Source: Chloroflexota bacterium
Lineage (GTDB): Bacteria > Chloroflexota > Anaerolineae > B4-G1 > SLSP01
Reading direction: 5' to 3'
Assembly: GCA_019873725.1 (NCBI GenBank)
Contig: JAIOAS010000004.1
Coordinates: 1-58,862, forward strand
Length of the DNA stretch: 58,862 bases
In this document: in pieces, positions 8,034 to 25,267 of the stretch
How the letters are laid out: each line of letters opens with the position of its first letter
Numbering within the stretch: position 1 is the stretch's first letter
Made by a program: the position numbers and the translations under genes
Notes under the pieces: model-generated
Told to the model about the DNA's origin: nothing
What the model saw: only the letters and a program-made list of their open reading frames with translations
Databases searched by the model: none

Positions 8034-8077
8034 CGGTATGAAGGAAGTGCAAAAGTGGTCGTTTTTCCTTCATACCG
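8034..8077. repeat. Conserved hairpin copy 2 (CGGTATGAAGGAA / TTCCTTCATACCG)
   Basis: Arms at 8034-8046 and 8065-8077. Same GGTATGAAGGAA...TTCCTTCATACCGGCA core as copy 1. Confidence 0.7.
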
Positions 8078-8103
8078 GCATAGCCTTTTCCGGAGGTGAA
8101 ACG

Positions 8104-8526: not shown

Positions 8527-8560
8527 ATGCCATATCACACAAAATCCAGGAGGAAACAAA

Positions 8561-9085
8561 ATGCGTAGACACTTCATCATCATTGGCCTGACCCTGGCCT
8601 TGATAGGGTTACCGCTCGGCGTGGGGTACGCGACCGCGCCGTGTGACAGCTTCGGCGCGCCGGTGGTGATGTCACCGTACCGGCTACGACAGCAGCGCTT
8701 CCTCACGGCCGCCACCCGCTGGGCCGATGCCGAGGAAGCGGTCGGCCTCACCCTGGACACCATTGCGCGTGGACCACAACCGCAGTCTACCGGCGCGGCG
8801 TTCCGGCTGGCCGAACAGGTGGGCCAGGCCGCCGGGCGACTGGACGCCCTGACACTGCCTGAAGCGCCAGCGGAGTACAGTTTGCTGGCCTTGACGATGC
8901 AGCAAACTACGGACACCTACGCCTACGCCGCCGAGCAATTGCTGACCTTCTACGGCAACAACGACGGCCAGGCTCTGGCGGAAGCGCGGGCCTCCGTGGC
9001 CCTGGCCCGGTTGGCGCTGGGCGACCTGCGCGCGGGCATCGCCGGTCTTACGTATCCCGCGTGCCGGGAGGTGTGGCGTGACTGA
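8561..9085 (+). CDS. Hypothetical secreted protein
   Basis: AGGAGG lies 8 nt upstream. MRRHFIIIGLTLALIGLPLGVGYATAPC looks like a signal peptide. The stop overlaps the next gene's start. Confidence 0.55.
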   Translation: MRRHFIIIGLTLALIGLPLGVGYATAPCDSFGAPVVMSPYRLRQQRFLTAATRWADAEEAVGLTLDTIARGPQPQSTGAAFRLAEQVGQAAGRLDALTLPEAPAEYSLLALTMQQTTDTYAYAAEQLLTFYGNNDGQALAEARASVALARLALGDLRAGIAGLTYPACREVWRD

Positions 9086-10463
9086 CACGAAAGATCAACC
9101 AGAGATCGAAAAGCTGAAAGCCGACTTTGCAATGCAGATGTATCTGCTCAAACAAGAACTATTGAGCAGTCAAATGCGCATCGCGACGAGTGTGCGCGCC
9201 CGTCATCGCACGGAAGCTATCCTGCAACAGTACCTCTCGATGCTGTGCCCTGAGGTCATCACGCAGGCGTTAGGCGCACAGATGAGCGTCACCGAAGCAG
9301 CGGAGTACATCTACACGCATCGTCTGTACGGCAGCGATCCGAAGAACCTGTTCCGATCCCCAAAAGCACAACCAGAGGAACAAGGAAAGGAAGAGGAAGG
9401 GGCAACGCCGACGTCACCTACGCCCGTGGTGGTCGTGGAGCCAGGTGTGGACCTTTCCAGTGACGCAGTCAAGTTTTTGTACGTGTTGGGGATAACCGTA
9501 GTGGCCAACGAAGCCCGCGACCTATGGGCACAGCACACCGGCAAGGCCGCCGGGAGCGCGAAACATACCGCCTTATCGGAGTTGCTGGACAAAGGCTTGC
9601 TGCGCGTGGAACAAATCCCGGTGCCACGGTATCTCACCGGGTACGTCAGCGACACCTGTTATGTCCTCACCGACGCAGGTCTGACCGAGTACCGGCGGCG
9701 CTTCAACAGTGAGCCGGCGAGCTACGAGGCCATCTACGCGCCCTACAAGTCGCCGGAGGCCTGGTGGATGATTCGGGCGACCAAAGCCCTGATTTTGGCG
9801 GGCAACGCGCACCCGGCCAACACCCGTTTCACCTACACCGTCTACGACCCGAAGGGAGATGCAGAGGCCATGCAAGCTGCCGGGTTCAGCAGCCGGTACG
9901 GGAATAGCGAACCGGACTTGGTTGTGGTGGTTAAATCGCGCTCCGCCGGCCAACCGCTGTGGCTGGCGGTGGAGTGCGAACGAGGGAAGTACAACAGCAC
10001 GCGGCTCAAGCAAAAGCTCGCCAAGAACCTGACAGACTACGCCACGGCGGGGTTTGGCGGCTGTTACTACATCGCCAACAACCGCGACACGGCACGTATG
10101 ATTGGTGGAACCCTCACCCGTCTCCGCGACAACCTCACCGCACGGCCTGATGCCAGCAGTACGCCGGGCTTCCTCGCCCTGTTCACCCTGGAAGCCTTGC
10201 GCGAGACGTGGTTGCCGACGCCGCGCTTTATCTTGACGGAGTTCCTCGACCGCAAGCTGCGGCAGCCCAACCCGAACTGGCCCGCGGAAGCGGCCAAGCC
10301 GGAACGGTATTTCAAGTATACGCCGGCGGACAGGGAGCAAGAGGCAGGAAGCAAGGGGCAAGAGGCAGGAAGCAAGGGACTTGTGGAGGACGAGGAAGAT
10401 GATATGGAAGGCACGTTGCCGGAGGCCGAGGACGAATGGGCGGACGAGGAAAGTGCAGCGTAA
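9078..10463 (+). CDS. Winged-helix plus PD-(D/E)XK-like protein (replication-relaxation-like), acidic tail
   Basis: ALSELLDKGLLRV..YVLTDAGLTEY looks like a winged helix. EPDLVVVVK...LWLAVECERGKY fits a D...ExK nuclease motif. The tail has a QEAGSKG x2 repeat and is rich in E/D. Family assignment is tentative. Confidence 0.5.
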   Translation: MTDTKDQPEIEKLKADFAMQMYLLKQELLSSQMRIATSVRARHRTEAILQQYLSMLCPEVITQALGAQMSVTEAAEYIYTHRLYGSDPKNLFRSPKAQPEEQGKEEEGATPTSPTPVVVVEPGVDLSSDAVKFLYVLGITVVANEARDLWAQHTGKAAGSAKHTALSELLDKGLLRVEQIPVPRYLTGYVSDTCYVLTDAGLTEYRRRFNSEPASYEAIYAPYKSPEAWWMIRATKALILAGNAHPANTRFTYTVYDPKGDAEAMQAAGFSSRYGNSEPDLVVVVKSRSAGQPLWLAVECERGKYNSTRLKQKLAKNLTDYATAGFGGCYYIANNRDTARMIGGTLTRLRDNLTARPDASSTPGFLALFTLEALRETWLPTPRFILTEFLDRKLRQPNPNWPAEAAKPERYFKYTPADREQEAGSKGQEAGSKGLVEDEEDDMEGTLPEAEDEWADEESAA

Positions 10464-10465
10464 GC

Positions 10466-10563
10466 AATCAGCAATCAGCAGTCAGCTATCAGCTATCAGC
10501 AATGCGCAGTGCCTGCTTGGCAGACAAAGCTGAAGGCTGAAAGCTGAAAGCTGAAGGCTAACA
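10466..10563. repeat. Convergent heptad arrays: 5x (W/A)nTCAGC, then 4-5x GCTGAAn
   Basis: Direct heptads run 10466-10500 and inverted heptads 10529-10563. The array starts 3 nt after the stop codon and is followed by TTTT at 10566-10569. Confidence 0.85.
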
Positions 10564-10586
10564 GCTTTTAAGGAAAGGATCACACA

Positions 10587-10820
10587 ATGACACTCGAAAC
10601 GTTTTTGACCTATGCCCTGCGACTCTGGTGGGCCGGGGCGCTGTACACGGGGGTTTTCCTCGTGCGCATTGGGCCGTTTGTGCTGGCAGTGCTTGGTTTC
10701 GTGGGCTGGCAATGGGCGCAGGGGACATCACCCTTGCACCGTCCCCGGAGGAAGACGGCGGCAGCCATGGCAGATGCGGCGCAAGCTGCGCCGGATACGC
10801 CGGCGTTCACGGTGCGCTGA
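10587..10820 (+). CDS. Small membrane protein (77 aa)
   Basis: Two hydrophobic segments (LRLWWAGALYTGVFLV, GPFVLAVLGFVGW). AGGAAAGGA lies upstream. Confidence 0.4.
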   Translation: MTLETFLTYALRLWWAGALYTGVFLVRIGPFVLAVLGFVGWQWAQGTSPLHRPRRKTAAAMADAAQAAPDTPAFTVR

Positions 10821-10837
10821 GGTAGAGAACGTCACAG

Positions 10838-12148
10838 ATGGCGAAAAACCTACTACCACCCCACAACATCGAAGCGGAGGAAGCAACCCTGGGCGCACTG
10901 CTGATCGACCCCAAGTGGGCGATCCCACAGGTGCAGCTGGTGCTCAAAGGGCCGGAGTTCTACTTGCAGAAGCATCGTTGGCTCTATGCCGTGCTCCTCG
11001 ACTTGTACGCCCGCCACGAGCCGGTGGACTTTCTCACGGTGACGACGGAACTGGAGAAGCGTGGGCAACTGGAAGCAGTGGGGGGCGCGGTCTTTATCAC
11101 GCAGTTGCTCAATGCCGTGCCCTCGGCGGCCAGTGCGGTCAGCTACGCCCACGAGGTGCGGCAGACCCACGTGCGGCGGCGCATCCTCGATGCCTGTAGC
11201 GCCGCCGCGCGTCTGGCCTACGATGCGCAGCGCCCCATCGAGCAAGTCGCCACCGAGGCCGAGGGCCTGTTCCTCACCATCCGCGACGACCTGGCCTACC
11301 AGGAGCGCTTGCAGCCCTTCGCGCAGATACTCCAACAGCTCTACGACGAGGCCGCCGCGCTGTATCACGATGGCATCCCCCTGGGGGTCGCCACCGGCAT
11401 GCCCGCGCTGGACAAGCTGCTCGGCGGTGGATTACGCAAGGGCACGCTCAACATTGTCGCGGCGCGGCCCGGCGTGGGGAAGTCCGTCTTGCTGGCGACG
11501 CTGGCCGTCCACGCGCTGCGCCTGGGCGTGCCTACGGCGCTCTTCTCCATCGAGATGCGCGGGCTGGAAGTGGCCGGGCGCATCGTGCAGAAGGAGTTAG
11601 GCCTGGATTACACCCGCCTGCGGGAAGGCGATTGGCCGCGCTTTGCGGACGGCTTGGGGCCACTCTCGGAGTTTCCCTTGTGGATCGACGACAGTCCCCG
11701 GCTGGCCATTGAAGACCTCTGCACCAAGGTCCGCCAACTCTATGCCCAGCACAACCTGGGCCTGGTGCTGCTGGACTACATTCAACTGGCCGAGACACAC
11801 CAACGCCTGGACTCGCGCTATCTCACCATCGGCCAAATCACGCGCGAACTCAAGCATCTGGCCCAGGAGTTGCAGATTCCCATTGTCGCCGCCAGCCAAC
11901 TGGGACGCGACGCCGACCATCGCCGCCCGACGCTGGGCGACCTGCGCGAATCGGGCAACCAGGAGGCCGACGCCGATGTGGTGCTGTTGCTGCACCGGCC
12001 CAACGGCGTGGACAACGCCCCCCTGGTGGAGACCGAGTTCATCCTCGCCAAGCATCGCCAGGGACAGGCCGGGCTGTTTACGATGGTGTTCCACAAGGCA
12101 CAGTTGCGTTTTGTGCCCCTCACGGATGCCACCAGCCAACTCGCTTGA
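10838..12148 (+). CDS. dnaB: Replicative DNA helicase DnaB
   Basis: The N-terminus LPPHNIEAEEATLGALLIDP is classic DnaB. Also has Walker A ARPGVGKS, the LVLLDYIQL motif and QLGRD. Confidence 0.92.
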   Translation: MAKNLLPPHNIEAEEATLGALLIDPKWAIPQVQLVLKGPEFYLQKHRWLYAVLLDLYARHEPVDFLTVTTELEKRGQLEAVGGAVFITQLLNAVPSAASAVSYAHEVRQTHVRRRILDACSAAARLAYDAQRPIEQVATEAEGLFLTIRDDLAYQERLQPFAQILQQLYDEAAALYHDGIPLGVATGMPALDKLLGGGLRKGTLNIVAARPGVGKSVLLATLAVHALRLGVPTALFSIEMRGLEVAGRIVQKELGLDYTRLREGDWPRFADGLGPLSEFPLWIDDSPRLAIEDLCTKVRQLYAQHNLGLVLLDYIQLAETHQRLDSRYLTIGQITRELKHLAQELQIPIVAASQLGRDADHRRPTLGDLRESGNQEADADVVLLLHRPNGVDNAPLVETEFILAKHRQGQAGLFTMVFHKAQLRFVPLTDATSQLA

Positions 12149-12174
12149 GGCGTGCCGAGGATAGGAAAGATTCT

Positions 12175-12235
12175 CTCAACGGATTCAACGGAATTGAACG
12201 GATATTTTTCCGTTTAATCCGTTCAATCCGTTGAG
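12175..12235. repeat. 61-bp near-perfect palindrome built from iterated (T/C)CAACGGA(T/A) units
   Basis: The left arm ctcaacggattcaacggaattgaacggat pairs with atccgtttaatccgttcaatccgttgag. It lies between dnaB and the Rep-like gene. Confidence 0.85.
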
Positions 12236-12261
12236 GCTATTGACAAGGAGCTTTTCCCGCA

Positions 12262-13731
12262 ATGTTTGCCGGATTTGCTTACCCTGAAGCCAACTGGTAC
12301 CGCTTGCCGAATGACTGGTTCGACGTATGGGCCGAGTTACGGCGGCAGACCGGGCGCGCACGCATCAAAGGGCCGTTGCAGGTGACGGAGTACGTCATCA
12401 AACACACCTGGGGCTGGCAAAACTTCGCCACGCCGGTGCGCCTGGCCTGGCACGATTTCCAGTATGGCCGGCGCAGCGGCACGCGCAACCTCGATCACGG
12501 CACGGGCCTCTCGCGCCGCGCGCTACGCCACGCCCTGGAAGACGCGCAGGCCTGGGGCTTGCTCGAACATCCACACGACGCCGCCGGGCAGCCGACCTAC
12601 ACGTATCGCCCCCGGATGTTGCCGCCAGACGCGAATACTCCTGCGGCTTTGTTGGATGAGGGCGCGGGTGGGGAATGGCGCGGTTTCGCGCCCCTGCGCA
12701 GTAACTTCTTCAAGGTGCCGGCACTGTGGACGGATATGAGCGCGCGGCTCGGTTCCGAGGTCGCCATTCTGAGCGTGGAGTACCTGTTCCGCCACACGTG
12801 GGGTTGGGAGACGTGGGATGGGCGCGCCTGTTGGCTCACCGAGGATGAGATCGCCCGCGGGCGGCAATATGCGAACGGGGAAGAACGCTATGATGCCGGC
12901 ATCGGTTACTCGACGCGGGCTGTTCACGACGGTCTGCGCGAGGCAGTGGTGCAGGGTTTGCTGGTCTGGCGGGACAATGGGGAAGTGCGGCAATACGCGC
13001 TATATCTGCAGGGGATGGTGATTAGCGACGAGGGTAAGTTCCAGGGATGGGCAACATCAACACCCGCGTCTGACAACACAGCAGAGCCACCACCGTCCCC
13101 ACAACCTGACCCTGACGTCTTGCCATCACAAGTTGCGGCAATCACACACCAGATTACGGCGCTGCTGAAGGTGTTGACCACCGCCGGAATCGCCCTGCCA
13201 CCCGGGTTCAGCACGGATGCAAGTATACCAGGGCTGGAAGCAAGTAGACCGCCCACAGAAGCAAGTAGACCGTCTTTGGAAGAAAGTACCCCACCTTATA
13301 TACAGACACTTACAGACACTCCAAAGACACTCTCATCATCAGACACCCACGCGTCGCGCGCGTCTTGCACGGACGGTGCAAAGACGGGTGATGATGCTGA
13401 GATTACACTTCCCGAAGACATTCAGCATGGGTTAGCGCAGATCGGTTTCCACCGCACCCGCAAAGCCTGGCGCGAAGTCCAGACCGTGTATGGCGCAGAC
13501 CCGGCTTACGTCCGGCAATGGCTGCACCACCTGGCTCACACACGGGCCGGCGATCCGCGTGCGGCGGGATTCTTCCGGCAAGCGGTGTTACGCGAGCGCG
13601 TGCCGTTGCCCGGGACGGGAAGGGAACCAGCGTGGGCTGACTGCCCTGAATGTCACGGGGCGGGCGTGGTGCTGGATAGCCGCGAGGAGAAAGCCGTGCG
13701 GTGCCCGGTATGCCAGAGGGGACAGGCATAG
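12262..13731 (+). CDS. Replication-initiator/replisome-organizer-like protein with duplicated winged-helix module and C-terminal zinc ribbon
   Basis: Two similar modules: YRLPNDWFDVW..VIKHTWGWQNF..GLSRRALRHALEDAQAWGLL and FFKVPALWTDM..LFRHTWGWETW..GYSTRAVHDGLREAVVQGLL. The C-terminus is CPECHGAGV..CPVCQ. Family call is tentative. Confidence 0.55.
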   Translation: MFAGFAYPEANWYRLPNDWFDVWAELRRQTGRARIKGPLQVTEYVIKHTWGWQNFATPVRLAWHDFQYGRRSGTRNLDHGTGLSRRALRHALEDAQAWGLLEHPHDAAGQPTYTYRPRMLPPDANTPAALLDEGAGGEWRGFAPLRSNFFKVPALWTDMSARLGSEVAILSVEYLFRHTWGWETWDGRACWLTEDEIARGRQYANGEERYDAGIGYSTRAVHDGLREAVVQGLLVWRDNGEVRQYALYLQGMVISDEGKFQGWATSTPASDNTAEPPPSPQPDPDVLPSQVAAITHQITALLKVLTTAGIALPPGFSTDASIPGLEASRPPTEASRPSLEESTPPYIQTLTDTPKTLSSSDTHASRASCTDGAKTGDDAEITLPEDIQHGLAQIGFHRTRKAWREVQTVYGADPAYVRQWLHHLAHTRAGDPRAAGFFRQAVLRERVPLPGTGREPAWADCPECHGAGVVLDSREEKAVRCPVCQRGQA

Positions 13732-13810
13732 TGCTAGATTAGACACGAACAACGACGTGCACCCGCACGACTGGCGCTGCGATTCAATACAGAAAAGCCT
13801 GTTTCGTATT

Positions 13811-13836
13811 TTGACAAGTTCCCGAAATGTTATACT
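13811..13836 (+). promoter_or_regulatory. Candidate CRISPR leader promoter (TTGACA, extended -10 TGtTATACT)
   Basis: TTGACA at 13811-13816 and TATACT at 13831-13836 with TG at -15/-14. The spacing is short (14 nt). It sits in an AT-rich leader about 190 nt upstream of repeat 1. Confidence 0.45.
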
Positions 13837-14023
13837 ATTAAAGCAGATGCGTGACCCAAGCGATGTAGAAGATGCTTTTTCAAGCCAAAAATCGGTCAAA
13901 AACGGCCAAAATGCGCGTTTTTTGCTATCTCAAAGGAGTCGTGCGCGAGCCACTAGCTCTGGGGGTTGAGACGCCCCAAAAGCAGTATACATCCACAACA
14001 TCTTGTGGTCAAGCCAAAATGCG

Positions 14024-14516
14024 GTCAGAGAGGCTTTAATCCCCGTAAGGGGTCGGAAACTTTTTAGTTGGCGGTTGACAATCGCCTCCTTCTGAATATC
14101 GTCAGAGAGGCTTTAATCCCCGTAAGGGGTCGGAAACGCGATTTGGGCGCAGCAGGTCGAGCAGTTCGTTGCGCCGGTCAGAGAGGCTTTAATCCCCGTA
14201 AGGGGTCGGAAACTCTTTACAGCGCCGGTGGGAAATCCGCACGTGAGTCAGGAAGTCAGAGAGGCTTTAATCCCCGTAAGGGGTCGGAAACCATCTTTCG
14301 GGATCAGATTCGGCTGTCCATGATCCCGAGTCAGAGAGGCTTTAATCCCCGTAAGGGGTCGGAAACTGACTGCCATCAATGCTCAAAAGTACTTCGTATT
14401 CAATGTCAGAGAGGCTTTAATCCCCGTAAGGGGTCGGAAACATAGATTTTGTTCGCCAATTCTCGGGCTTTATCCGAACGTCAGAGAGGCTTTAATCCCC
14501 GTAAGGGGTCGGAAAC
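14024..14516 (+). CRISPR. CRISPR array, leader-proximal part (repeats 1-7)
   Basis: The 37-nt repeat is GTCAGAGAGGCTTTAATCCCCGTAAGGGGTCGGAAAC. Copies start at 14024, 14101, 14177, 14255, 14330, 14405 and 14480. Spacers are 38-41 nt. Confidence 0.97.
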
Positions 14517-14731
14517 AAGCGAACTTTTTGTCAAATGCCGCCCGTGATGGGCCACCCATAGTCGGGTGATGTGGGCCACTCGTGTGCGGGTGGAGTGGGC
14601 CACACAGGGCGCATGGATCGTGCGTTGAGAGACAGCTCGACCATGCCCAAAAAAGTAACTCAACCGTGTTTTTCGCAATGCTTCATCCGTGTTAGCTCGC
14701 TGTCATCCACTGAGCACGTGTGGCTGGTGGA

Positions 14732-15511
14732 TTAGGTTTCGTTGGCTGTTGACAAAGTCGTGGTTGGGCTGGGTTCCTCCTTTCGGCGCTGCCGTTGGCG
14801 ATAGCTGCTACCGCGGATGGTCAGCGTGTGGGTATGATGGGTCAAACGGTCCAGCGCCGCGCTGGCTAACAGGTCATTGCCAAAGACCTCGGCCCATTCC
14901 TCGAAGGCGCGGTTGCTGGTGATGATGATCGAGGCCCGTTCGTAGCGTTCCGCGATGATCTCGTACAGGTCTTGCGCGGACTGTGAGGTCAGCGGATAGA
15001 GGCCAAAATCATCCAGAATGAGCAAGTCGGCGGTGAGGAGCTTGCTCCACAGTCGGGTATGCCCGCCGCTGGCCTGGGTGGCGTGCAGGCTCTTTAACAG
15101 ATGATGCACCGGATAGGACAAGACGCGCAAGTCGCGTTTCAGGGCTTCGATGCCCAGGCCATTCGCCAGGTGACTTTTCCCCACGCCACTGGGGCCACAC
15201 AACAGGATGTTTTCGTGGCGGGCGATGAAGGTGCAGGTGGCCAGGTCCTGGATCAAGGGGCGATTGACGCCCGGCGCCGCCCCAAAGTCAAAGTGCGCGA
15301 GTGTCTTTTGGCTGTCACAGCCCGATTGCGCCAGGTGCCGCGCCAGACGGCCCTGGTTGCGCCGTTCCAACTCATCGTCGAGCAACACGGCCAGGAATTC
15401 AAGCGGCGCGAGTTGCCGTTCAACAGCTTGCGCGGCCCGCAGGTCGAGGGTTTCCAGCATCCCCGAGAGACGCAGTTGGCGCAGTTTGGGGAGCAGCGGA
15501 TGGGTCATCAT
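14732..15511 (-). CDS. istB: IS21 helper ATPase IstB
   Basis: Starts MMTHPLLPKLRQLRLSGMLETL. Has Walker A GPSGVGKS and Walker B LLILDDFG. The longer track ORF is an upstream extension into istA. Confidence 0.92.
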   Translation of the reverse strand: MMTHPLLPKLRQLRLSGMLETLDLRAAQAVERQLAPLEFLAVLLDDELERRNQGRLARHLAQSGCDSQKTLAHFDFGAAPGVNRPLIQDLATCTFIARHENILLCGPSGVGKSHLANGLGIEALKRDLRVLSYPVHHLLKSLHATQASGGHTRLWSKLLTADLLILDDFGLYPLTSQSAQDLYEIIAERYERASIIITSNRAFEEWAEVFGNDLLASAALDRLTHHTHTLTIRGSSYRQRQRRKEEPSPTTTLSTANET

Positions 15512-17043
15512 GCCCTCACCTCCTCCGCGTCCACGGGGGCGCCGAAGAACTCGGCGCTGGTGCGCGCAAAGGCGTGTTTTTGCGGCGGGGCGTCCGGCGC
15601 TGGGTCGGGTAGCGGCTCGCGGTCCAGCGCGGCGTTGAGGATCGCCTTGATGCGCCGGTAGCTGGGATCGGCAAAATGCAGGGCGCGCGCACACGCGGCC
15701 TCCAAGCGCTCGCCGCCGACGCTCTCTTCCAGGCGCAGGATGGCTTGCACGGAGCGCAGACGGTACAGCGGGCGATCGCCCAGCAGGGTCGCGACAACCT
15801 GGCTGGTCGCCGCGCCGAGCCGCGTGGCCACGCGCTGGCAGTGCGCGGGCGTGTGTTCCAGATAGGCCGCCTTGGGCTCGGGATAGTCCGCCAGTCGCGT
15901 CCGCCACTCGCCCGGCTTGAGACTCCGCTCGTGGGTGGCGACCAGCTCCAGCCCGTGGTAGATTTCGACGATCCGCTCGCTGATGTAGGCGTCGAGCGTC
16001 TGGCCCACGTAGCGGTAGGGCACCGAATAGTAGCTTTTGTCGAGGCGCACGTGGCAGTCGGGATGCACCATGACCGGTTTGACTTCGCGCAGGGTAAACG
16101 GCGTTTCGGGCAAGGGTAGCAGCGCGGCCTGCTCGTGCGCGTGGAACAGCGCCAGGGGCGCCTGGTGCGTCGTGCCGTGTTCACGTACTCCGGCGCGCGC
16201 CTGCACCCAGGTGCGCAAGTGTTGGTTGGCGACCTGGATATCGAGGAACTCACGCCCGGCCATAAAGTTGCGCTGCACGTAATGCACGCCGCTTTCCACC
16301 TTGCCTTTGTGCTGAGGCGTGCGCGGCCGGGTGGGGCTGATCACGAACCCGTAGTGTTGCGCCATCCGCCGGTAGGCTTCACCGAGAATGGGATCGTGAA
16401 TCAACGCCTGCAGCACCGCCGCTTTCAGGTTGTCAGGCACGATCCGCCTGGGGACGCCGCCCCAACTCTCGAACGCGCGACGATGCAACTCAATCCAGGT
16501 GGCGGTCTTTTGATCGAAGACCAGCTCGGCGTACTGGTGGCGGCTGTAGCAGAGTGTGGCGACGAAGACGTAAGCGTGGCGCGCCTGCCCGCTGGCCGGG
16601 TCGTACAGATGGCCCACACTCCCAAAGTCGACCTGCGCCTCCTCGCCCGGCGCCGTATGCACCCGCACAAACACCTCTGGGGACTTGGCCCGCAGCTTGT
16701 TCACGAACCGGCGCACCGCCGAGTAGCTGCCCTGGTAGTGGTGATCATCCTGCAGGTACTGCCAAATCGCGGTCATTTCGACGCCTTGTTCCACCCACGC
16801 TTGCACCACTTCCCGGTAGGGCTCGACGCTCGATTCCACGCTGGGCGGTTGCGGTGGTTCGCCCCACGCAGCCGTCAGCGTGGCGTCGTCCGGCAAGGGC
16901 TGTGCTGCATCCAGGTAGCCCTGCGCCGCGGCCCAGGCCTGATACTTGCCCACCGTCGTGCGCGACAACTTCAGGTCCTTGGCGATGCGGCGCTGGCTCT
17001 CGCCAGCCCGCAAACGGTAAAGCAATTCTCGTAAGTAGTTCAT
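15508..17043 (-). CDS. istA: IS21 transposase IstA
   Basis: Starts with the HTH MNYLRELLYRLRAGESQRRIAKDLKLSRTTVGKY. Has an rve-type DDE core (QVDFG..., VPDNLKAAV). Its stop overlaps the istB start. Confidence 0.92.
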   Translation of the reverse strand: MNYLRELLYRLRAGESQRRIAKDLKLSRTTVGKYQAWAAAQGYLDAAQPLPDDATLTAAWGEPPQPPSVESSVEPYREVVQAWVEQGVEMTAIWQYLQDDHHYQGSYSAVRRFVNKLRAKSPEVFVRVHTAPGEEAQVDFGSVGHLYDPASGQARHAYVFVATLCYSRHQYAELVFDQKTATWIELHRRAFESWGGVPRRIVPDNLKAAVLQALIHDPILGEAYRRMAQHYGFVISPTRPRTPQHKGKVESGVHYVQRNFMAGREFLDIQVANQHLRTWVQARAGVREHGTTHQAPLALFHAHEQAALLPLPETPFTLREVKPVMVHPDCHVRLDKSYYSVPYRYVGQTLDAYISERIVEIYHGLELVATHERSLKPGEWRTRLADYPEPKAAYLEHTPAHCQRVATRLGAATSQVVATLLGDRPLYRLRSVQAILRLEESVGGERLEAACARALHFADPSYRRIKAILNAALDREPLPDPAPDAPPQKHAFARTSAEFFGAPVDAEEVRA

Positions 17044-17338
17044 ATGTATTCGCTCCATGTGGTTTATTCTCCAGATCGCACGGTCTAACTGTCTCTCTGG
17101 AGAGATGATGCCACACGTGCTAGCTTTCACAAACCGTGGCCTACAGCGAGCGACTACGGGTGGCCCACAGCGCGTGACGCTGACTGGCCCACACCGGGCG
17201 ATCATAGGTGGCCTACACCGGGCGGCTATGCCTGGCCCTTACCGGGTGACGATGGCTGGCCTACACCAGGCGGCTATGCATGGCCCAGTATAGACCGGTC
17301 AATCACACTTTTTGCGGGATAGCTTGTACAGCCTGTTG

Positions 17339-19397
17339 GTCAGAGAGGCTTTAATCCCCGTAAGGGGTCGGAAACAAGCGGGGCAATTATCATCCTCGGT
17401 ATCTAAAAAAAGTCAGAGAGGCTTTAATCCCCGTAAGGGGTCGGAAACTCTAGCGTGGGATATCGTCGTCCAGATCATCTTAACACGTCAGAGAGGCTTT
17501 AATCCCCGTAAGGGGTCGGAAACCAAAGATCGCGAGGACGATCGAAGCGATGATAGGCCAAGGTCAGAGAGGCTTTAATCCCCGTAAGGGGTCGGAAACT
17601 CACAATTTTTTGGCGTCTGCCTTGAGCTTCTGGAGTACAGTCAGAGAGGCTTTAATCCCCGTAAGGGGTCGGAAACTATATTGAAGGAATCTCTTCCTCC
17701 ATCGGGGATAGTCGTCAGAGAGGCTTTAATCCCCGTAAGGGGTCGGAAACGCGAGATATCCAGCACTTCACCGGGCCTGGCATATACGTCAGAGAGGCTT
17801 TAATCCCCGTAAGGGGTCGGAAACTTGCTACGATTTGCGGCAAATTTCGAGCTTCGCCGGTCGTCAGAGAGGCTTTAATCCCCGTAAGGGGTCGGAAACT
17901 AGCTACTACCGCTTCGACAGGCCCAAGCCCGTCTTGCGTCAGAGAGGCTTTAATCCCCGTAAGGGGTCGGAAACCGAATTTGACCAGTTACAATAATCGG
18001 CCGAGTCCAAAGTCAGAGAGGCTTTAATCCCCGTAAGGGGTCGGAAACAGGCAACCACCCTGAACCCCATAGGCTACAATGACTTTTGTCAGAGAGGCTT
18101 TAATCCCCGTAAGGGGTCGGAAACTGTACGTGTTCACAATCGAAGCCGCATCCCGCTTTCCGAGGTCAGAGAGGCTTTAATCCCCGTAAGGGGTCGGAAA
18201 CTTTGAGTGATAGGCGTGGATAAGGTTTGGGTGTATCCAAGTCAGAGAGGCTTTAATCCCCGTAAGGGGTCGGAAACACTGTTCAGTAGCTCCCCAGTCG
18301 ATGAAGATTGTGTCAGGTCAGAGAGGCTTTAATCCCCGTAAGGGGTCGGAAACGATAGTTTGCGGGTTTTGCCCAAACAAGTTTGCAGGTTTTGGTCAGA
18401 GAGGCTTTAATCCCCGTAAGGGGTCGGAAACCGCATCGGACAAGCCCGAAGTGCCTACCAGGGCATAGAAGTCAGAGAGGCTTTAATCCCCGTAAGGGGT
18501 CGGAAACCGTCTTGCAGACGTCGTTGACACACACTTCACCCGGATGTCAGAGAGGCTTTAATCCCCGTAAGGGGTCGGAAACTTCCCATAAGACCTCCTA
18601 TGCGGCTGGTCTGGCAATCGTCGTCAGAGAGGCTTTAATCCCCGTAAGGGGTCGGAAACTCATAATCTACAGCAGCAAGGGGATCAAGATCAGGATCGTC
18701 AGAGAGGCTTTAATCCCCGTAAGGGGTCGGAAACCGCCGCCACCGCGCATAGCATACCCACGCGCAATAGCTCGTCAGAGAGGCTTTAATCCCCGTAAGG
18801 GGTCGGAAACGCAAGACGCAGAGCGCGAACGCCGAGCTGGAGGACGAGTCAGAGAGGCTTTAATCCCCGTAAGGGGTCGGAAACTCTGAACCTTGCCCCT
18901 GCAGGGAGTACTTCATTCTCCCTGTCAGAGAGGCTTTAATCCCCGTAAGGGGTCGGAAACCCACATCTTCCGTTTGTCCATCACTTGCAGTGATTTCGTC
19001 AGAGAGGCTTTAATCCCCGTAAGGGGTCGGAAACTCACGTTATCCCGAAGGACGTCAGAGACAATGTGTCCGTCAGAGAGGCTTTAATCCCCGTAAGGGG
19101 TCGGAAACTTTCGCACGATCGAGGATCGTGTATGGCGTTAGTTGCGGGTCAGAGAGGCTTTAATCCCCGTAAGGGGTCGGAAACAATTTGAATGAAATGG
19201 ATACTAAACCGTCGCCACCTTCGTCAGAGAGGCTTTAATCCCCGTAAGGGGTCGGAAACGGTGTCACCACAGACGCTTGAGACACGGGTGCAGCTTTAGT
19301 CAGAGAGGCTTTAATCCCCGTAAGGGGTCGGAAACTCGAGAATATTGGTTCCCAGCAACGCCGGAAATCCTACGTCAGAGAGGCTTTAATCCCCGTA
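17339..19397 (+). CRISPR. CRISPR array, distal part (repeats 8-34 intact, repeat 35 truncated at nt 24)
   Basis: There are 27 identical 37-nt repeats from 17339 to 19335. A final copy starting at 19374 stops after GTCAGAGAGGCTTTAATCCCCGTA, where IS21-end sequence begins. Confidence 0.97.
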
Positions 19398-19465
19398 TGT
19401 CAAATGCCGCCCGTGATGGGCCACCCATAGTCGGGTGATGTGGGCCACGCGTGTGCGGGTTGAGG
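19398..19465 (+). mobile_element. Solo IS21 left-end remnant (~68 nt)
   Basis: tgtcaaatgccgcccgtgatgggccacccatagtcgggtgatgtgggccac... matches the left end of the IS at 14529 with 1-2 mismatches. Similarity is then lost. Confidence 0.9.
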
Positions 19466-19972
19466 CAATAAAAGACGGCCCCTCAAGTTGAGGAGCCGTT
19501 TTCGTTGACAGTTATCCTTCCAGGCGTATTGTTTCGGCGCTTTGCCGCGACGTTCCAGGACGCACGGCGCTTGTGCAGCCATAGAATTGGTGTCCACGGT
19601 TTCCAACGTGATCTCGAATTCCCATCGATCCCTGAGATCGAACAGAAAGATCATCGTCTGGCCTGGCGCCAACGGCAGTTCGCCGACGCGCACTACACTT
19701 GTCCAGGGGGCTTCTTCCAGATACGTATGGTTGATGTGGCACAGCTGGCCATACCGGTTTTGATAGGAAAAGCGATACAGGTGGTCGCCGTCGAACGAGT
19801 AGACATCCAGGATGAGCTGCGCCAGTTCATCCAACGTGGATGTCGCCGGCAGCGCCATTCGCCGCCACAGGTTCTTCCCCAGCGTGACTTTGAAAATATG
19901 GACGCCGTCGCGCACGGTCGCTTCGGCGGGCAACGGCAGAAGTGGTTCCCACTGCGGGATGTAGGGGCGCAA
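19400..19972 (-). CDS. PRiA4_ORF3-like (IS1096 TnpR-like) domain protein, possibly disrupted
   Basis: VHIFKVTLGKNLWRRMALPATSTLDELAQLILDVYSFDGDHLYRF...FLFDLRDRWEFEITLE fits the pRiA4b ORF-3-like fold motif. The start is TTG. The C-terminal ~35 aa are read through a terminator hairpin and IS21-end DNA. Confidence 0.5.
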   Translation of the reverse strand: MRPYIPQWEPLLPLPAEATVRDGVHIFKVTLGKNLWRRMALPATSTLDELAQLILDVYSFDGDHLYRFSYQNRYGQLCHINHTYLEEAPWTSVVRVGELPLAPGQTMIFLFDLRDRWEFEITLETVDTNSMAAQAPCVLERRGKAPKQYAWKDNCQRKRLLNLRGRLLLPQPAHAWPTSPDYGWPITGGI

Positions 19973-20370
19973 GGCCGGTTGTAACGTCCCCAGTGCAAGG
20001 CACTGATTTCCGGGAGGAGGCGTAAAGGCAGTTGTTGCATCGCGGTGACGGGCAAGGGGTGCGCGTAGACGTAATCCAGCAACGCGTCGAAATCATGAAC
20101 GATGGAGCCGGGGGTAGTTGCGGTAAAGTGTTGCTGTTGAATCAGGCGTTTGTCCCTGGCCGTGAGCTTTATCCTTTTGTATTGAGCGTCTATGATCCCC
20201 ATTGTGGCCTCCACAGGTCAGACTGTATTACGCGGGTTACTGGTCACGGTGGGTGTCTGGATCGGCAAGGATGTCGCCACTCCGTTTTAACAAGTTCCTG
20301 GACCACTGTACTATGATCTCGCCAGCGACATAAGACAGCATGCACACCTGGCGTTGAGCCTGCCCTCACC

Positions 20371-23300
20371 TCACCCCTCCACCGCTAGCACCCGTTCCCC
20401 CACCACGCTGCACACCCGACCCTGCCACTGCAACGTCCCTTCCACTACCACGAACCGTCCGCGCAGCGCCTCGCGATACGCCGCGAACACCTCCGGGCGC
20501 AGAACCACATTGACCACGCCCCCCTCGTCCTCCAACGCGATGAACGCCGTCCCCTGCGCCGTCGGCGGACGCTGCCGGGCAATGATCACCCCACCCACGC
20601 GCAGCTTCGTCCCGTCAGGCCAGTGGGATAACTCGGCTACCGGCGTCACCCCCATCGCACGCAAGGTCTGCGCCACGGTCTGCACCAGATGCCCTTGCGC
20701 TGTCACCCCCGTCGTCGCCACTTCCATCCACAGGCGCTCGGTGTCGGTGGCCCTGGGAAACGCCGGGCGCGTCCCCGGCTCGACGACGTCCAATTGCGGT
20801 GGCCCACCGATGGTCTCCATTGCTGCGCCCAGGTCCCACACCAACTGCCGCCGTGGGATACGCCACCCGTCGAAGGCCCCGCCCAGGATCAACGCCTCGA
20901 CCGCGCGCCGTCCCAGGCGCGTGCGCTGGCAGAAATCGGTGAGCGAGGTGAACGGCCCGTATTCCCGCGCCGTGACGATCTGCGCCCCGCCGCTTTCGCC
21001 CACGCCCGACACCGTTGCCAGCCCCAGACGGATGCCGGTGCCGTCCGCCGTCGCGGACACGTCCGACGCTTGCACGTCCGCGCCGAAAATCTGTATCCCG
21101 CAGCGCCGCGCCTCGTCCACGATCACCCGTGGCGGATAGAAGCCCATCGGCTGGTGGCGCAGCAGCCCGGCAAAGAAGGCGACCGGGTGGTAGCAGCGCA
21201 GCCACGCCGAGTGATAGGTCAGCACCGCGAAGGCCGCCGCGTGGCTCTTGGGGAAGGCGTAGCTGCCAAACGCCTGCATCTGGGCAAACACCGTCTCGAT
21301 GATCTTTTGCGGTACACCGTTGGCCTGCGCTCCGGCAAAGAACTGCGCCTTGAACTGCTGCAAGGTTTCCTCGGCGCGCTTGCGGCCCAGGCAGCGTCGC
21401 AGTTGCTCGGCCTGCCCTGGCGTAAACCCGGCCAGGTCCCGCGCCACCTTGAGCACCTGTTCCTGGAAGATCATCACCCCCAATGTTTCGGCCAGCGCGG
21501 GCTTGAGCAAGGGGTGAACATAGCGCACCGGCTCTTGCCCATAGCGCCGCCGCAGATATGGGCGTACGACGTTGGCTTGTAGCGGTCCGGGACGGATCAG
21601 CGCGATCTCCACTGTCAGATCGGCAAAACAACGGGGCTGGAAGTTGCGCACCAACTCCGCCTGCGCGCGGCTCTCCAACTGGAACACCCCGATGGTCTCC
21701 CCCCGGCACAACATATCGTAGACCGCCGGATCGTCGAAGGTCAACCGTTCCAGTTCAGGGCGCTCCCCGGTCATCGCCGCCACGATACACACCGCGTCCT
21801 CGATGGCCGACAGCATCCGCAGGCCCAGCAGGTCCACCTTGACGTACCCTGCGTCTTCCAGTCTCTCCTTGTCCCACTGCGTCACGATCCGGCCCGGCAG
21901 TGTCGCCGGTTCCAGGGGAATCAGTGTATTCAAGGCTGGCCCGGAGAGCACCATCCCGCCGTTGTGGATACCCAGGTGACGCGGCAAGCCGTCCAGTTGC
22001 GGGACGAGGCGCAGCAGGTGTTGGAACAAGGGGCTGTCCAGGTCTGCGCCCACTGCCGCTTGCAGTGACGGCGTCGCTGTCACGCTCTGTGGATCGTTGA
22101 CATCCAACGCCCCCACCAGGCGTTCCAACAGCGCCGGAGGCAGACCCAACGCTCGGCCCACATCGCGCACGGCGGAACGCGCGCGGAAGGTTACCAGCGT
22201 ACAAGCCATTGCCGCGTGATCGGGACCGTAACGCTGCATCACGTATTGGATGACCTCTTCACGGCGATCGGCGGCGATGTCGAGGTCAATGTCGGGCGGG
22301 CTGCGGCGCTCCGGTGACAGGAAGCGCTCGAACACCAGGTCGGCAGCCAATGGATCAATCGGGGTAATGCCCAACAGGTAGGCTACCAGCGAATTGGCCG
22401 CGCTGCCGCGGCCCTGGCAGCGGATACCGTGTTCGCGGGCGAAGCGCGCGATGTCCCACACGATGAGGAAGTAGTCGTCCAGACCCATCGCGTGGATGCT
22501 GGTCAACTCGTGTTCCAGTTGGGATAGAGCACGCACGGTGTCCACATAGCGGTCACGGAGTGCAGCCACGCACAACTGGCGCAAATAGGTGCTGGCGACG
22601 CTGCCGTCCGGCGTGGGGAACGCCGGCAACACTTGCGCGCCGTTCGGCAGAAAGGTCACGGCGGACGCACAATGGTCGGCGATGACGCGCGTGTTCGTGA
22701 TCGCTGCCGGCACGTTGGCGAACAAGGCCGCCATTTCGTCGGGGGTGCGGAAGCGGTATTCATCGTTGGGCCGCAGCAGGTCGCCCGCGTCTTCCAGGGT
22801 GACGTGGTGGCGGATACAGGTGAGGACGTCGTGAACCTCACGTTGCTCCGGGTACAGGTAGTGGACATTCCCCGTAGCGACTACCGGCAGGCGCAGGCGG
22901 TCGGCCAGGCCCACCAGGTGACCGAGCAAGCGCATCTCGCCGGGGTGATAGTGGCGTTGGACTTCGATGAAGAAATGCTCCGGCCCGAACAGCCGCGCGT
23001 AGCCCTGGGCTGCATCGAGTGCCGCAGCGTAGTCTCCAGCGACAATCCGCCGCGCCACAGCTCCCTGGCGACACCCCGACAGCGCGATGAGACCCGCCGA
23101 GTGTTCAGCCAGGTCGGCCAATGCCAGCCGCGCCGTACCTTTGGGTTGCCCACGATGCGCCAGGGTGAGGAGTTGGCAGAGGTTGGCATAGCCGTGCGGC
23201 GTCTCGGCCAGCAATGTCAGGTGCGCCGTGCCGTCACCGTCTGCCAGCGTCAATTCCGCGCCCAGCAGCGGCTTGATCCCTGCTGCTTCCGCTGTGCGGA

Positions 23301-23460
23301 TGAAGGGCACGGCCCCATACAGCCCGTCGTGATCGGTGAGGGCCAGCGCGGGCATTTCCAGGGATGCCGCGTGTTCGACCAGGCTCTGCGGCGAGACGAC
23401 GCCGTCCAGCAGGCTGTGACTGGAATGGGCGTGCAGTTCGACGTAGCAGGCGCGGTTCAT
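20371..23460 (-). CDS. dnaE2: Error-prone DNA polymerase III alpha subunit DnaE2
   Basis: Starts with the PHP domain, MNRACYVELHAHSSHSLLDG, and is about 1029 aa. The ATG at 23460 overlaps the imuB stop (ATGA). Confidence 0.9.
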   Translation of the reverse strand: MNRACYVELHAHSSHSLLDGVVSPQSLVEHAASLEMPALALTDHDGLYGAVPFIRTAEAAGIKPLLGAELTLADGDGTAHLTLLAETPHGYANLCQLLTLAHRGQPKGTARLALADLAEHSAGLIALSGCRQGAVARRIVAGDYAAALDAAQGYARLFGPEHFFIEVQRHYHPGEMRLLGHLVGLADRLRLPVVATGNVHYLYPEQREVHDVLTCIRHHVTLEDAGDLLRPNDEYRFRTPDEMAALFANVPAAITNTRVIADHCASAVTFLPNGAQVLPAFPTPDGSVASTYLRQLCVAALRDRYVDTVRALSQLEHELTSIHAMGLDDYFLIVWDIARFAREHGIRCQGRGSAANSLVAYLLGITPIDPLAADLVFERFLSPERRSPPDIDLDIAADRREEVIQYVMQRYGPDHAAMACTLVTFRARSAVRDVGRALGLPPALLERLVGALDVNDPQSVTATPSLQAAVGADLDSPLFQHLLRLVPQLDGLPRHLGIHNGGMVLSGPALNTLIPLEPATLPGRIVTQWDKERLEDAGYVKVDLLGLRMLSAIEDAVCIVAAMTGERPELERLTFDDPAVYDMLCRGETIGVFQLESRAQAELVRNFQPRCFADLTVEIALIRPGPLQANVVRPYLRRRYGQEPVRYVHPLLKPALAETLGVMIFQEQVLKVARDLAGFTPGQAEQLRRCLGRKRAEETLQQFKAQFFAGAQANGVPQKIIETVFAQMQAFGSYAFPKSHAAAFAVLTYHSAWLRCYHPVAFFAGLLRHQPMGFYPPRVIVDEARRCGIQIFGADVQASDVSATADGTGIRLGLATVSGVGESGGAQIVTAREYGPFTSLTDFCQRTRLGRRAVEALILGGAFDGWRIPRRQLVWDLGAAMETIGGPPQLDVVEPGTRPAFPRATDTERLWMEVATTGVTAQGHLVQTVAQTLRAMGVTPVAELSHWPDGTKLRVGGVIIARQRPPTAQGTAFIALEDEGGVVNVVLRPEVFAAYREALRGRFVVVEGTLQWQGRVCSVVGERVLAVEG

Positions 23461-24863
23461 ATCCGCCGCCGTTCCAGATACCAGGCGTCGTTCGCCAGGT
23501 CGCGGAAAACGATCTTCACCTGGCGGTCGCGCAGTTCGACGCGGTAGTAGTCGCGCAGCACGGGCTGTGTCCACCAACGCCGTCTTTCGCGCCAGTGCTC
23601 GTAGACGCGAGCCACGGGGTGAAAGCGTTGATCCCACACCAGGGCCAGCGGTTGCCCGGCAGCGTCAAGCGTGGTCTGGATCGCGCGCGGGCCGGGTGGG
23701 GCCAGCAGCGACGCCACGATGACGATCAGTTCCCCGAAACGCTGGCGCAGCCGCCGCAAGGTCTCCTGCAGGGCGCGCCCACGCGCGTCGCTGGGTGCGT
23801 TGAACAGCGCCAGTTGTGTCGCCGCGAGATACGCCGGACGCAGGGGGTACAGTGTCAGGGTCAGGCGAGTCACAGCGCGGGTAAGGGTGACGCGCATTGC
23901 CAATCCAACGGCCTGACGCTTGAGTTGGTCCACATCGTCCGTGGGCGGTTCGATGGCGGTGCTGACGATGTGTGTTTTCCCGGCTTCGTCTTCGAGCGTC
24001 AGGGTTATGCCCTGCGCCTGATGTTTGCGCTGTACCAGGTCGGTCGCCGCGCTTTCACCCAGCCGTGCAACGCGCGCGACCAGGGGGCCGGCATCGCGTA
24101 ACGGGGGTTCGCACAAGTGACTGCGTTCCACCACCAGGGGCGGGGCATCGGGGTAAACGCCGCGTGGATCGCGCCCGGCGGCTAGATCGTGGAACAGCCC
24201 CGCATCCGCACCGAACTGCCGCACGATGGCGGCGCGTGGCAAGGCCGCCAGTGTGCCCAGGGTGGTAATGCCGAGCAGGTGCAGGCGACGATGCATTTCA
24301 GGGTCGAGGGGCAGGGTCTCGATGGGCAGCGGAGACAGAAAGGTGCGTTCCTGGCCCGGCTGCACCGGACACCAGCCGTGAGGCCGGGCGGCACGCGCGG
24401 CTTGTTCGGCGGTGAAGCGTTGAGGAGCCAGGCCGATGCGGGCGTCCAGCGTGCTGACTTGCAGCACTTCCCGCGCCAGTGACCGGGCCAGTTCGACGTC
24501 TGCTTGCGCCGGATCGCGCCCTTGGGGGACACGCAGATCCGACACATCGGCAAACAGGTAGCCCAACCCCGCCGTCTCGACGCGGTCGGTGTGCTGGCGC
24601 AGCACGGCATCCAGCGCGGCGTGCGCTTCGCAGTAGACGGCTTCCCGCGCCGGGACGAAGGTTGCGCCGGGGCACACCTGCGCCGCGCGCGCCAGGCGCA
24701 TTCCCAGGCGCACCCCGGCAGAGGCGGCATCGGGGGAGCAGTCCAGCACCGCGCCGGGGTCCCACGGGCGTCCTCCAACGATGAGCGGCGCGGTATCCAG
24801 GGCTCCGGCTTGCTGTTCGACCTGAACCGGCAGATGAGCAGCGAGCAGGCAGATGATTTTCAT
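23457..24863 (-). CDS. imuB: Y-family polymerase-like ImuB
   Basis: Starts MKIICLLAAHLPVQVEQQ and has Y-family palm/little-finger-like features. It is translationally coupled to dnaE2, the canonical cassette order. Confidence 0.8.
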   Translation of the reverse strand: MKIICLLAAHLPVQVEQQAGALDTAPLIVGGRPWDPGAVLDCSPDAASAGVRLGMRLARAAQVCPGATFVPAREAVYCEAHAALDAVLRQHTDRVETAGLGYLFADVSDLRVPQGRDPAQADVELARSLAREVLQVSTLDARIGLAPQRFTAEQAARAARPHGWCPVQPGQERTFLSPLPIETLPLDPEMHRRLHLLGITTLGTLAALPRAAIVRQFGADAGLFHDLAAGRDPRGVYPDAPPLVVERSHLCEPPLRDAGPLVARVARLGESAATDLVQRKHQAQGITLTLEDEAGKTHIVSTAIEPPTDDVDQLKRQAVGLAMRVTLTRAVTRLTLTLYPLRPAYLAATQLALFNAPSDARGRALQETLRRLRQRFGELIVIVASLLAPPGPRAIQTTLDAAGQPLALVWDQRFHPVARVYEHWRERRRWWTQPVLRDYYRVELRDRQVKIVFRDLANDAWYLERRRI

Positions 24864-24888
24864 TGTCTGACTTGGCTCCAACGATATA

Positions 24889-25034: not shown

Positions 25035-25070
25035 CAGACCTGACAGGTTTTCTGAAACCTGTCAGGTCTG
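25035..25070. repeat. Perfect 16-bp-stem hairpin (CAGACCTGACAGGTTT tctg AAACCTGTCAGGTCTG)
   Basis: Arms at 25035-25050 and 25055-25070. It lies between the divergent imuB and kinase promoters. Confidence 0.8.
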
Positions 25071-25215: not shown

Positions 25216-25267
25216 AGAAGATACAGGATATTGGCAATTGAAGGAAACGGCGGGCGAGGGACCAGCG

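Follow-up and report, generated by a model that had tools for sequence, protein, structure and literature searches.

An array of CRISPR repeats with no cas genes near it raises two questions, namely how it came to stand alone and whether it can still be put to work. The array considered here lies on the plus strand of contig JAIOAS010000004.1 from an uncultured Anaerolineae (Chloroflexota) bacterium; the entire contig of 58,862 bp is referred to below as the window. The array is a known kind of object, a type III-D-family array separated from its cas genes, and such a separation is an ordinary outcome. Comparison of the same site among related assemblies makes it, in our judgement, reasonably probable that the array lost its cas operon by deletion at the position where relatives hold III-D genes.

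The array is built on the 37-nt repeat GTCAGAGAGGCTTTAATCCCCGTAAGGGGTCGGAAAC, which is present in 34 copies from 14024 to 19335, all on the plus strand and all without mismatch; the number of exact copies expected by chance was 0 (100 shuffles). A truncated 35th repeat (19374-19397, plus strand) consists of the first 24 nt only and is fused straight to the terminus of an insertion sequence (IS). The 34 spacers are 36-41 nt long, no two are alike, and their mean GC content is 50.7%, compared to 59.8% in the remainder of the window. An earlier description of this DNA from its letters alone, hereafter the sequence-only reading, had reported a 35-repeat array with identical repeats and GC-poor spacers. 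The identity and the composition were borne out, and 35 repeat starts are indeed present, but the last one is a 24-nt stump. The array itself had been recognized correctly, whereas the IS that splits it within spacer 7 and the solo IS end that caps it had been overlooked. Because of this split, the array consists of a first segment (14024-14528, plus strand), which holds repeats 1-7 and spacers 1-6 as well as the initial 12 nt of spacer 7, and a second segment (17308-19373, plus strand) with what is left of spacer 7 and with repeats and spacers 8-34.

The array is preceded by a 216-nt CRISPR leader (13808-14023, plus strand). It aligns at 79-94% with the leaders ahead of identical-repeat arrays in more than 10 other contigs, and some of these leaders adjoin cas6 and cas10. 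The leader contains a promoter of the extended -10 type (13811-13839, plus strand), in which TTGACA is followed after 14 nt by TGTTATACT. In a consensus scan of the sequence this promoter matched sigma-70 at 10/12 positions, and its motif is almost invariant across the more than 10 homologous leaders, in agreement with the plus-strand leader and promoter proposed earlier. The repeat can fold into a CCCC/GGGG stem with a GUAA loop, the folding energy of which is unexceptional for a sequence of this short length (z = -0.61). By its repeats, spacers, and leader, the feature is a genuine CRISPR array. The uniformity of the repeats had also been taken as a sign of recent activity. This evidence is weaker than assumed, as a degenerate terminal repeat is missing partly because the IS end removed the old end of the array.

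The identical repeat was found at 7 loci in GTDB genomes and at 18 metagenome loci (cited below by handles such as L024), and all of these belong to Chloroflexota/Anaerolineae except for one contig that is probably mis-binned. That contig (L001, DYJM01000262.1) is 1.3 kb long and was binned as Acidithiobacillus ferrivorans, while it carries the Anaerolineae repeat and a palindromic spacer of the metagenome-assembled genome (MAG) S1bins75 described further below. The repeat, together with a homologous leader, is linked to type III-D genes in DAOSNS010000060.1, L024, L023, and L002/L031. The best comparator is the Anaerolineae MAG contig DAOSNS010000060.1 (L003, L007, and L005, the order of which was confirmed by L029). 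Its left part comprises the last bases of an orf489 homologue, a leader (leader A), an array (array A) of 15 repeats with a degenerate last repeat, and cas10. The operon continues after cas10 with csx10, csx7, further genes, csx19, and the gene for a TIGR03986 RAMP, and ends with a TPR/Death-like-domain gene, a Csx14/Crn1-like gene, and cas6. To the right follow leader B, array B with 34 repeats, a truncated repeat, and a 67-nt IS end at the end of the contig. The Csx10 match (TIGR02674) scored 235.6 bits against a cutoff of 177.3, and the Csx7 match scored 186.9 against a cutoff of 108. Genes for Cas10, Csx10, Csx7, Csx19, the TIGR03986 RAMP, and Cas6 likewise adjoin the identical-repeat array in L024. 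The order of leader, array A, and cas10 recurs in both L024 and L023, and L027 holds a complete homologous III-D operon ending in cas6. Cas6 of the related loci belongs to PF10040 and has hundreds of homologues in Anaerolineae.

A second line of comparison is provided by the type III-Dv repeat of CRISPR2 in Synechocystis sp. PCC 6803, GTTCAACACCCTCTTTTCCCCGTCAGGGGACTGAAAC, which is processed by Cas6-2a (PMC11026444). Both repeats are 37 nt long, carry the CCCCGTNAGGGG hairpin at nt 18-29, and end in GAAAC at the 3' side (PMC11026444), and they are identical at 25/37 positions. The spacers are 36-41 nt long here and 34-46 nt in Synechocystis, and in relatives of the window the identical repeat adjoins cas10, csx10, csx7, csx19, and cas6. 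Taken from sequence comparison, these observations support the assignment of the repeat to a Cas6-processed, type III-D-associated family. The earlier suggestion of a type I/III repeat processed by Cas6 is thus supported, and it is sharpened to type III-D by the linkage in relatives and by the Synechocystis repeat. In contrast to the Synechocystis locus, the window contig has no cas gene, and a TPR/Death-like-domain gene is present in some of the related Anaerolineae operons. The Anaerolineae operons also have no adjacent cas1-cas2, whereas the adaptation genes of Synechocystis are located downstream of cas6-2a. No cas1 or cas2 was found within the reachable sequence of 7 type III loci (L003/L007, L024, L027, L030, L031, L037, and L046), the arrays of which reach 55-67 repeats. 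Therefore, the adaptation genes must lie elsewhere, and adaptation in trans is the norm in this clade.

Of the MAG S1bins75, which has a locus with the identical repeat and a different set of neighbors, we note the following. Only Cas_NE0113 and cas6 stand beside its array, and the 10 kb upstream hold neither Cas10 nor RAMP genes; a CHAT-nSTAND1 NTPase gene lies directly upstream of its cas6 (L031 4788-7064). The oldest, duplicated spacer of its array (L004 66-105, L002 spacer 5, L001) matches, at 30/30 positions, a perfect palindrome with a 16-bp stem in the window (25035-25070, CAGACCTGACAGGTTT-tctg-AAACCTGTCAGGTCTG), located between an imuB-like gene and the diversity-generating retroelement described below. 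The palindrome could be a genuine protospacer, or it could belong to a hairpin element that is widespread.

No cas gene was detected in the window by any of the approaches used. Pfam identified no Cas proteins among the 30 long open reading frames (ORFs), and NCBIfam, PHROGs, and PADLOC identified none among the window ORFs that were otherwise unannotated. When 15 Cas proteins from related loci were compared with the six-frame translation of the window by tblastn, no Cas protein was found; the single match was a Death-like domain at 56357-56740. Rfam gave no family match in the window. The sequence-only reading had likewise recognized no Cas-like protein. The source strain was otherwise encountered only as a 6.2-kb Logan contig (SRR16606022). 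Of the Cas6 homologues in Logan, the closest two (91% and 82% identical) stem from other samples.

The Death-like domain belongs to a set of conflict-system genes. Three TPR proteins are encoded around a protein with EAD7 and a bacterial Death-like domain (bDLD1) at 52755-58743 on the minus strand. The bDLD1 of the window is 40% identical to that of the TPR-bDLD1 gene inside the DAOSNS type III-D operon (L007 2018-3574). Such similarities hint that, in this clade, the EAD7/bDLD1/TPR domains of conflict systems are linked to type III CRISPR. Another protein encoded in the window (31830-34715, 961 aa) combines a beta-propeller of the PQQ type with a CHAT protease domain at the C terminus; the CHAT part gave a weak PADLOC match to SAVED_CHAT.

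The position of the array is informative in its own right. Judged from the alignments, it occupies a hypervariable CRISPR-cas hotspot between orf489 and the PRiA4/dnaE2 genes, at which the window holds a cas-less allele. On the left, the site is bordered by orf489 (12262-13731, plus strand), which encodes a 489-aa protein and is the conserved flank. What follows orf489 differs among the relatives. An inverted type III operon (Cas6, SLFN_AlbA_2, AAA_15/21, RAMPs, and Csx19) lies directly after it in L037-39 and L042. Genes for an AAA_25 protein and a DnaG-like primase, then cas10 and RAMPs of a type III operon in direct orientation, are found in L046, and unrelated genes followed by the end of dnaE2 in L041. 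A leader and an array alone are present in L010 and in L006/L009/L044. The right flank is arranged in the order truncated repeat, 67-nt IS end, PRiA4_ORF3 remnant, and dnaE2. It is 82-87% identical to L006/L009 and L013, and to L010 from PRiA4 onward. The remnant of the PRiA4_ORF3-domain gene (19400-19972, minus strand) runs into the IS end with its 3' part; its homologue in L010 is longer, with 415 aa. The adjoining error-prone polymerase cassette (20371-24881, minus strand) encodes a DnaE2-type Pol III alpha subunit (1088 aa) together with a homologue of Y-family polymerases that resembles ImuB, and forms the conserved right border of the variable site, also in L010 and L041. Independent assemblies yielded cas-less alleles in L010 and in L006/L009, of which the latter, from MAG DAIUDK, has visibly decayed, with 4/8 repeats mutated and ~110 nt of the leader missing.

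The two ends of the window array correspond to different arrays of the comparator. Positions 13718-14023 match the start of the DAOSNS contig and its leader A, and in L023 the C-terminal region of orf489 is followed by leader A, array A, and then cas10. At the other end, the truncated repeat and the 67-nt IS end correspond to the tail of DAOSNS array B. The tails of A-type arrays differ, as they consist of a conserved last spacer and a degenerate repeat, followed by cas10. The window thus appears to combine an A-type head (orf489 flank and leader) with a B-type tail, with the operon that intervenes in DAOSNS missing. Two other candidate markers were discarded. An 18-nt leader block is no A-type marker, since it is also present in leader B of S1bins75, and the upstream flank alone is diagnostic. 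A promoter-like motif at 20285-20314 (TTTTAACAAGTTCC...TGTACTAT), which resembles the promoter of the CRISPR leader (73% over 30 nt), was considered as a remnant of a second leader and rejected, because the homology ends within 14 nt.

Insertion sequences have shaped the array at both interruptions. The element within spacer 7 (14529-17307, minus strand, 2,779 bp) belongs to the IS21 family. Its istA gene (15508-17043, minus strand) encodes a 511-aa protein with rve and Mu-transposase C (Mu-transpos_C_2) domains in Pfam, and its istB gene (14732-15514, minus strand) encodes a 260-aa protein matching IstB_IS21 with 232 bits. As in other members of the family, the genes istA (rve DDE) and istB (IstB_IS21 AAA+) overlap, the ends are of the TGT...ACA type, subterminal repeats and a 5-bp duplication are present, and the size is 2.8 kb. 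The ends read TGTCAAATG... and ...ATCACA, with several GTGGCC(C/T)ACA subterminal repeats at a 24-nt period. The target duplication CTTTT is found at 14524-14528 and 17308-17312, and in silico excision of the IS and one CTTTT restored a 38-nt spacer 7. Unlike typical family members, this copy sits within a CRISPR spacer, a solo 67-nt end has been left capping arrays in several lineages, and a 214-bp derivative resembling a miniature inverted-repeat transposable element (MITE) occurs on the same contig.

The solo end (19398-19464, plus strand) is the istB-side end, 97% identical to 14529-14595 and oriented as in the full IS, so that the full copy in spacer 7 is co-oriented with a solo end 4,869 bp downstream. 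The identical 67 nt, with an unchanged right-hand boundary, cap arrays in L005, L006/L009, and L013. The junction between repeat and IS lies after repeat nt 24 in the window, after nt 22/23 in L013, and after nt 33 in L005, L006, and L009. At every junction compared, the IS terminus is intact and the right boundary is constant. The MITE-like element (44479-44692, minus strand) consists of both IS21 ends fused without transposase genes; the ends are 95% and 85% identical to those of the full IS copy, and a target duplication is not obvious. The IS21 copy, the genes of which face opposite to the array, probably cuts 27 of the 34 spacers (8-34) off from the leader promoter.

Two routes could have led from a DAOSNS-like arrangement to the cas-less allele. 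In the first, the operon would be removed by homologous recombination, with repeats of array A pairing with identical repeats of the co-oriented array B. In the second, the end of a new co-oriented IS21 copy in array A would recombine with the solo 67-nt end; with the copy in array A, one such event would suffice to remove everything from the remainder of array A, through the cas operon and leader B, to array B. After an insertion and such a recombination, the left junction would lie where the new copy had inserted, with the right boundary unchanged. The observed junctions, which vary by lineage at a constant right boundary, fit repeated trimming of this kind. None of the 34 spacers is shared with any of the 25 other arrays compared, and repeated trimming would explain both this lack of old spacers shared among lineages despite a common tail and the missing degenerate repeat. 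The cas-less DAIUDK allele and the cas-bearing DAOSNS array B have the same repeat/IS junction (after repeat nt 33); therefore, the solo IS end predates the loss in DAIUDK, through which this tail was kept. Erosion would continue in the window, as the IS in spacer 7 and the solo end represent a pre-deletion configuration, from which one more recombination would delete 27 repeats.

Although we infer loss rather than gain, several points weigh against this choice. Its direction is unproven, and the gain of a cas cassette by recombination within an ancestral single array could equally account for the alleles. A deletion between identical repeats leaves no scar and is not directly demonstrable. 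DAOSNS array B stops at the contig end, and its continuation into PRiA4/dnaE2 is deduced from L013 and L006. In addition, the 34 perfect repeats, the intact leader and promoter, and the private spacers suit an array that is still used and extended rather than a relic; therefore, either the loss of the cas genes was recent or the array is served in trans.

Service in trans is the strongest rival. The array can act only if a compatible cas6, an effector, and cas1-cas2 lie elsewhere in the genome. The steps by which it would do so are those of established type III biology. The leader promoter at ~13811 would transcribe the array on the plus strand, and a PF10040-family Cas6 would cleave the repeats 3' of the CCCC-GUAA-GGGG hairpin. 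This cleavage would leave the 8-nt 5' handle UCGGAAAC on the CRISPR RNAs (crRNAs), which would load a Cas10/Csx10/Csx7/Csx19 effector. A working distant array, with a III-D effector, cas6, and adaptation genes elsewhere that process, use, and extend it, is to be taken seriously, and we rate its chance as somewhat short of even. It is compatible with a past deletion at the site, but it would make the array fully functional today, and the cas-less locus would be one among several arrays of the genome. It is favored by the 34/34 perfect repeats, the conserved leader and promoter, and a spacer set wholly private to the window array. In addition, 0/7 of the type III loci of the clade have cas1-cas2 nearby, so that adaptation already proceeds in trans there, and the MAG E05-031 holds a III-D operon without an array within 10 kb (L030).

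A published survey (Bernheim et al. 2020, PMC7145637) lends general support to this possibility. In it, about 35% of arrays lay outside CRISPR-Cas loci, and many of these were of a kind that cas genes in trans could serve; such distant arrays are common, and the use of arrays in trans is well documented (PMC7145637). The window array resembles the distant and orphan arrays of that study in having a typable repeat and no neighboring cas cluster, and the related DAIUDK allele drifts as expected of an abandoned array. It differs from them in that the cas-containing state of the same site is visible in relatives, and therefore the origin of this orphan array can be reconstructed. For the window array, distant and orphan are distinguishable only with the whole genome.

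On the other side, no cas gene is tied to this genome, and the close Cas6 homologues come from other samples. The IS21 copy, with its genes opposing the array, probably keeps transcription from the leader from reaching spacers 8-34. The cas-less allele of MAG DAIUDK is decayed, and a search of limited sensitivity revealed no close Cas6 in that MAG. The spacers do not help to decide. The 34 spacers gave no match against 50,697 phage and 72,556 plasmid records (blastn, E <= 1), the 24-29-nt cores of 7 spacers had no exact match in IMG/VR, and comparison of the spacers with the rest of the window and with all fetched loci gave no match. An absence of targets is expected for an uncultured lineage and is uninformative on the use of the array.

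A different carrier was also considered. The sequence-only reading had noted that the array follows dnaB and a Rep-like gene, and had suggested a plasmid-like or integrated element that relies on cas genes in trans. The replicative helicase of the DnaB family (10838-12148, plus strand) was identified by Pfam, and is 92-94% identical across relatives. The Rep-like label is unproven for orf489, which matches no Rep family. Together with orf489 and six conserved ORFs without a family match (6511-10820, plus strand), dnaB forms an 8-gene module; none of the six matched in Pfam, NCBIfam, PHROGs, or PADLOC. Within the same interval, orf9078 (9078-10463, plus strand) encodes a PD...ExE..K-like motif, which was spotted by eye. 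The module (window 6577-13715) is 86-89% identical at the nucleotide level to L037-L039, on contigs of 56-195 kb. L042, L045, and L046 likewise conserve it, and the protein is recorded on contigs of up to 326 kb.

The orf489 family is restricted to Anaerolineae, with ~37 homologue clusters, and the protein had no match in Pfam, NCBIfam, PHROG, PADLOC, or the PDB sequences. The AF2 structural model (pLDDT 72.5) predicts winged-helix-like domains, two in tandem, along with a disordered Pro/Ser linker, a helical domain, and a C-terminal zinc ribbon (CxxCxGxG...CxxC). Foldseek retrieved generic winged helix-turn-helix regulators (best E = 0.04), while the RepA_N structures 4pql and 4pt7 matched insignificantly at E ~0.6-0.8. 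Given the zinc ribbon beside the leader, a miniature Cas12/TnpB-like effector was considered and rejected: orf489 has no RuvC/OrfB match, its model shows tandem winged helices, and the family is also present where no array follows. The dnaB-orf489 intergenic region (12175-12235) contains three direct AACGGA units followed by three inverted copies, which together form a large palindrome. The region upstream of dnaB (10463-10566) holds tandem heptamers in two sets of six repeats, one of the AGCAATC type and one of the AAAGCTG type. From their sequence, the palindrome and the heptamers could be operator or origin elements of the module.

These features bear on the idea that the DnaB/orf489 block serves as the replication core of an Anaerolineae plasmid or integrative element with a type III CRISPR locus as its usual cargo, of which only the guides are left here to exploit the cas genes of the host. 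We consider this explanation unlikely. It draws on the conservation of the module as a block with varying left neighbors, which are radical SAM genes in the window as in L037 but YdjM/LysM genes in L045. It also draws on L046, in which genes for an AAA_25 ATPase and a DnaG-like primase stand between the module and a type III operon. The tandem winged helices modelled for orf489, as in iteron-binding initiators, with weak RepA_N-like fold matches, would suit a replication protein, as would the AACGGA palindrome and heptamer arrays in the intergenic regions of the module. Two copies of orf489 are present in MAG DAIUDK, and CRISPR-Cas systems or isolated arrays occur on 3% of plasmids (PMC7145637). 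However, orf489 matches no Rep, plasmid, or phage family, its fold matches are insignificant, and no partition, integrase, relaxase, or type IV secretion system genes are present among the annotated window ORFs. The contig ends do not overlap and give no sign of circularity, relatives bear the module on contigs of 56-326 kb, DnaB is conserved like a core gene (92-94%), and the repeat is absent from IMG/VR viral contigs.

The earlier proposal is favored by the flanking of type III loci by the DnaB module in relatives, once with a primase, whereas no match to a Rep family, no partition, integrase, or transfer genes, and no hint of circularity were found. A mobile carrier with cas genes in trans is possible and unproven, and the relatives point more directly to a cas operon lost at this exact site. 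A bolder version holds that the 8-gene block (DnaB, the PD-(D/E)XK-like protein, and orf489) is the core of a group of Anaerolineae mobile replicons that carry type III loci without cas1-cas2, with the window as a guides-only member that feeds host cas proteins. This we regard as improbable; if it were true, crRNAs of the guides-only member in host cas proteins could, for example, fight competing elements. More remote still is the possibility that the 8-gene block itself aids spacer uptake or array maintenance instead of Cas1-Cas2.

The weakest alternative, an assembly artefact in which array A was joined to array B and the cas operon skipped, finds some footing in the repeats identical across the arrays of the clade and in the many related contigs that break inside arrays, but is very improbable because the unique 36-41-nt spacers between repeats make any assembly word beyond the repeat length unique, the contig crosses a full IS, a solo IS end, and a MITE cleanly, which is rare for collapse-prone assemblies, and independent assemblies of L010 and, on two occasions, of L006 and L009 gave the same cas-less arrangement.

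The remaining elements of the window were recorded in their own right. A complete diversity-generating retroelement (DGR) occupies 25238-31745. Its targets (25238-27418 and 29360-31684) encode proteins that combine a Ser/Thr kinase with an FGE-sulfatase domain of C-type-lectin fold, and the reverse transcriptase (27547-28632) is followed by bAvd (28629-28997). The template repeat starts at 29042 and the variable repeats at 27286 and 31552, each ~127 nt long. In the repeat core, differences between template and variable repeats are mostly at template adenines (13 and 18 sites). A DDE_5-family transposase element at 3463-5043 is 87% identical at the nucleotide level to a copy (L019 3072-4655, L018) that adjoins another identical-repeat array in a metagenome contig. 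The 1322-aa serine-rich protein encoded at 48732-52700 matched NCBIfam NF033849 (ser_rich_anae_1) with 362 bits, below the 650-bit cutoff.

Arrays without cas genes are common, and the value of this one lies in providing a worked example of the decay of a CRISPR-Cas locus. The same chromosomal site can be read in ~10 related assemblies, so that the steps of decay are traceable. On the explanation by loss of the operon, the series would begin with two co-oriented arrays around a III-D operon, and proceed through the loss of the operon to the trimming of the old array end by an IS end. It would continue with a fresh IS copy poised to delete most of the remainder, as in the window, and with point-mutational decay in one relative. 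Beyond this series, a conserved DnaB-containing module accompanies type III loci without cas1-cas2 in Anaerolineae, and could merit a dedicated study.

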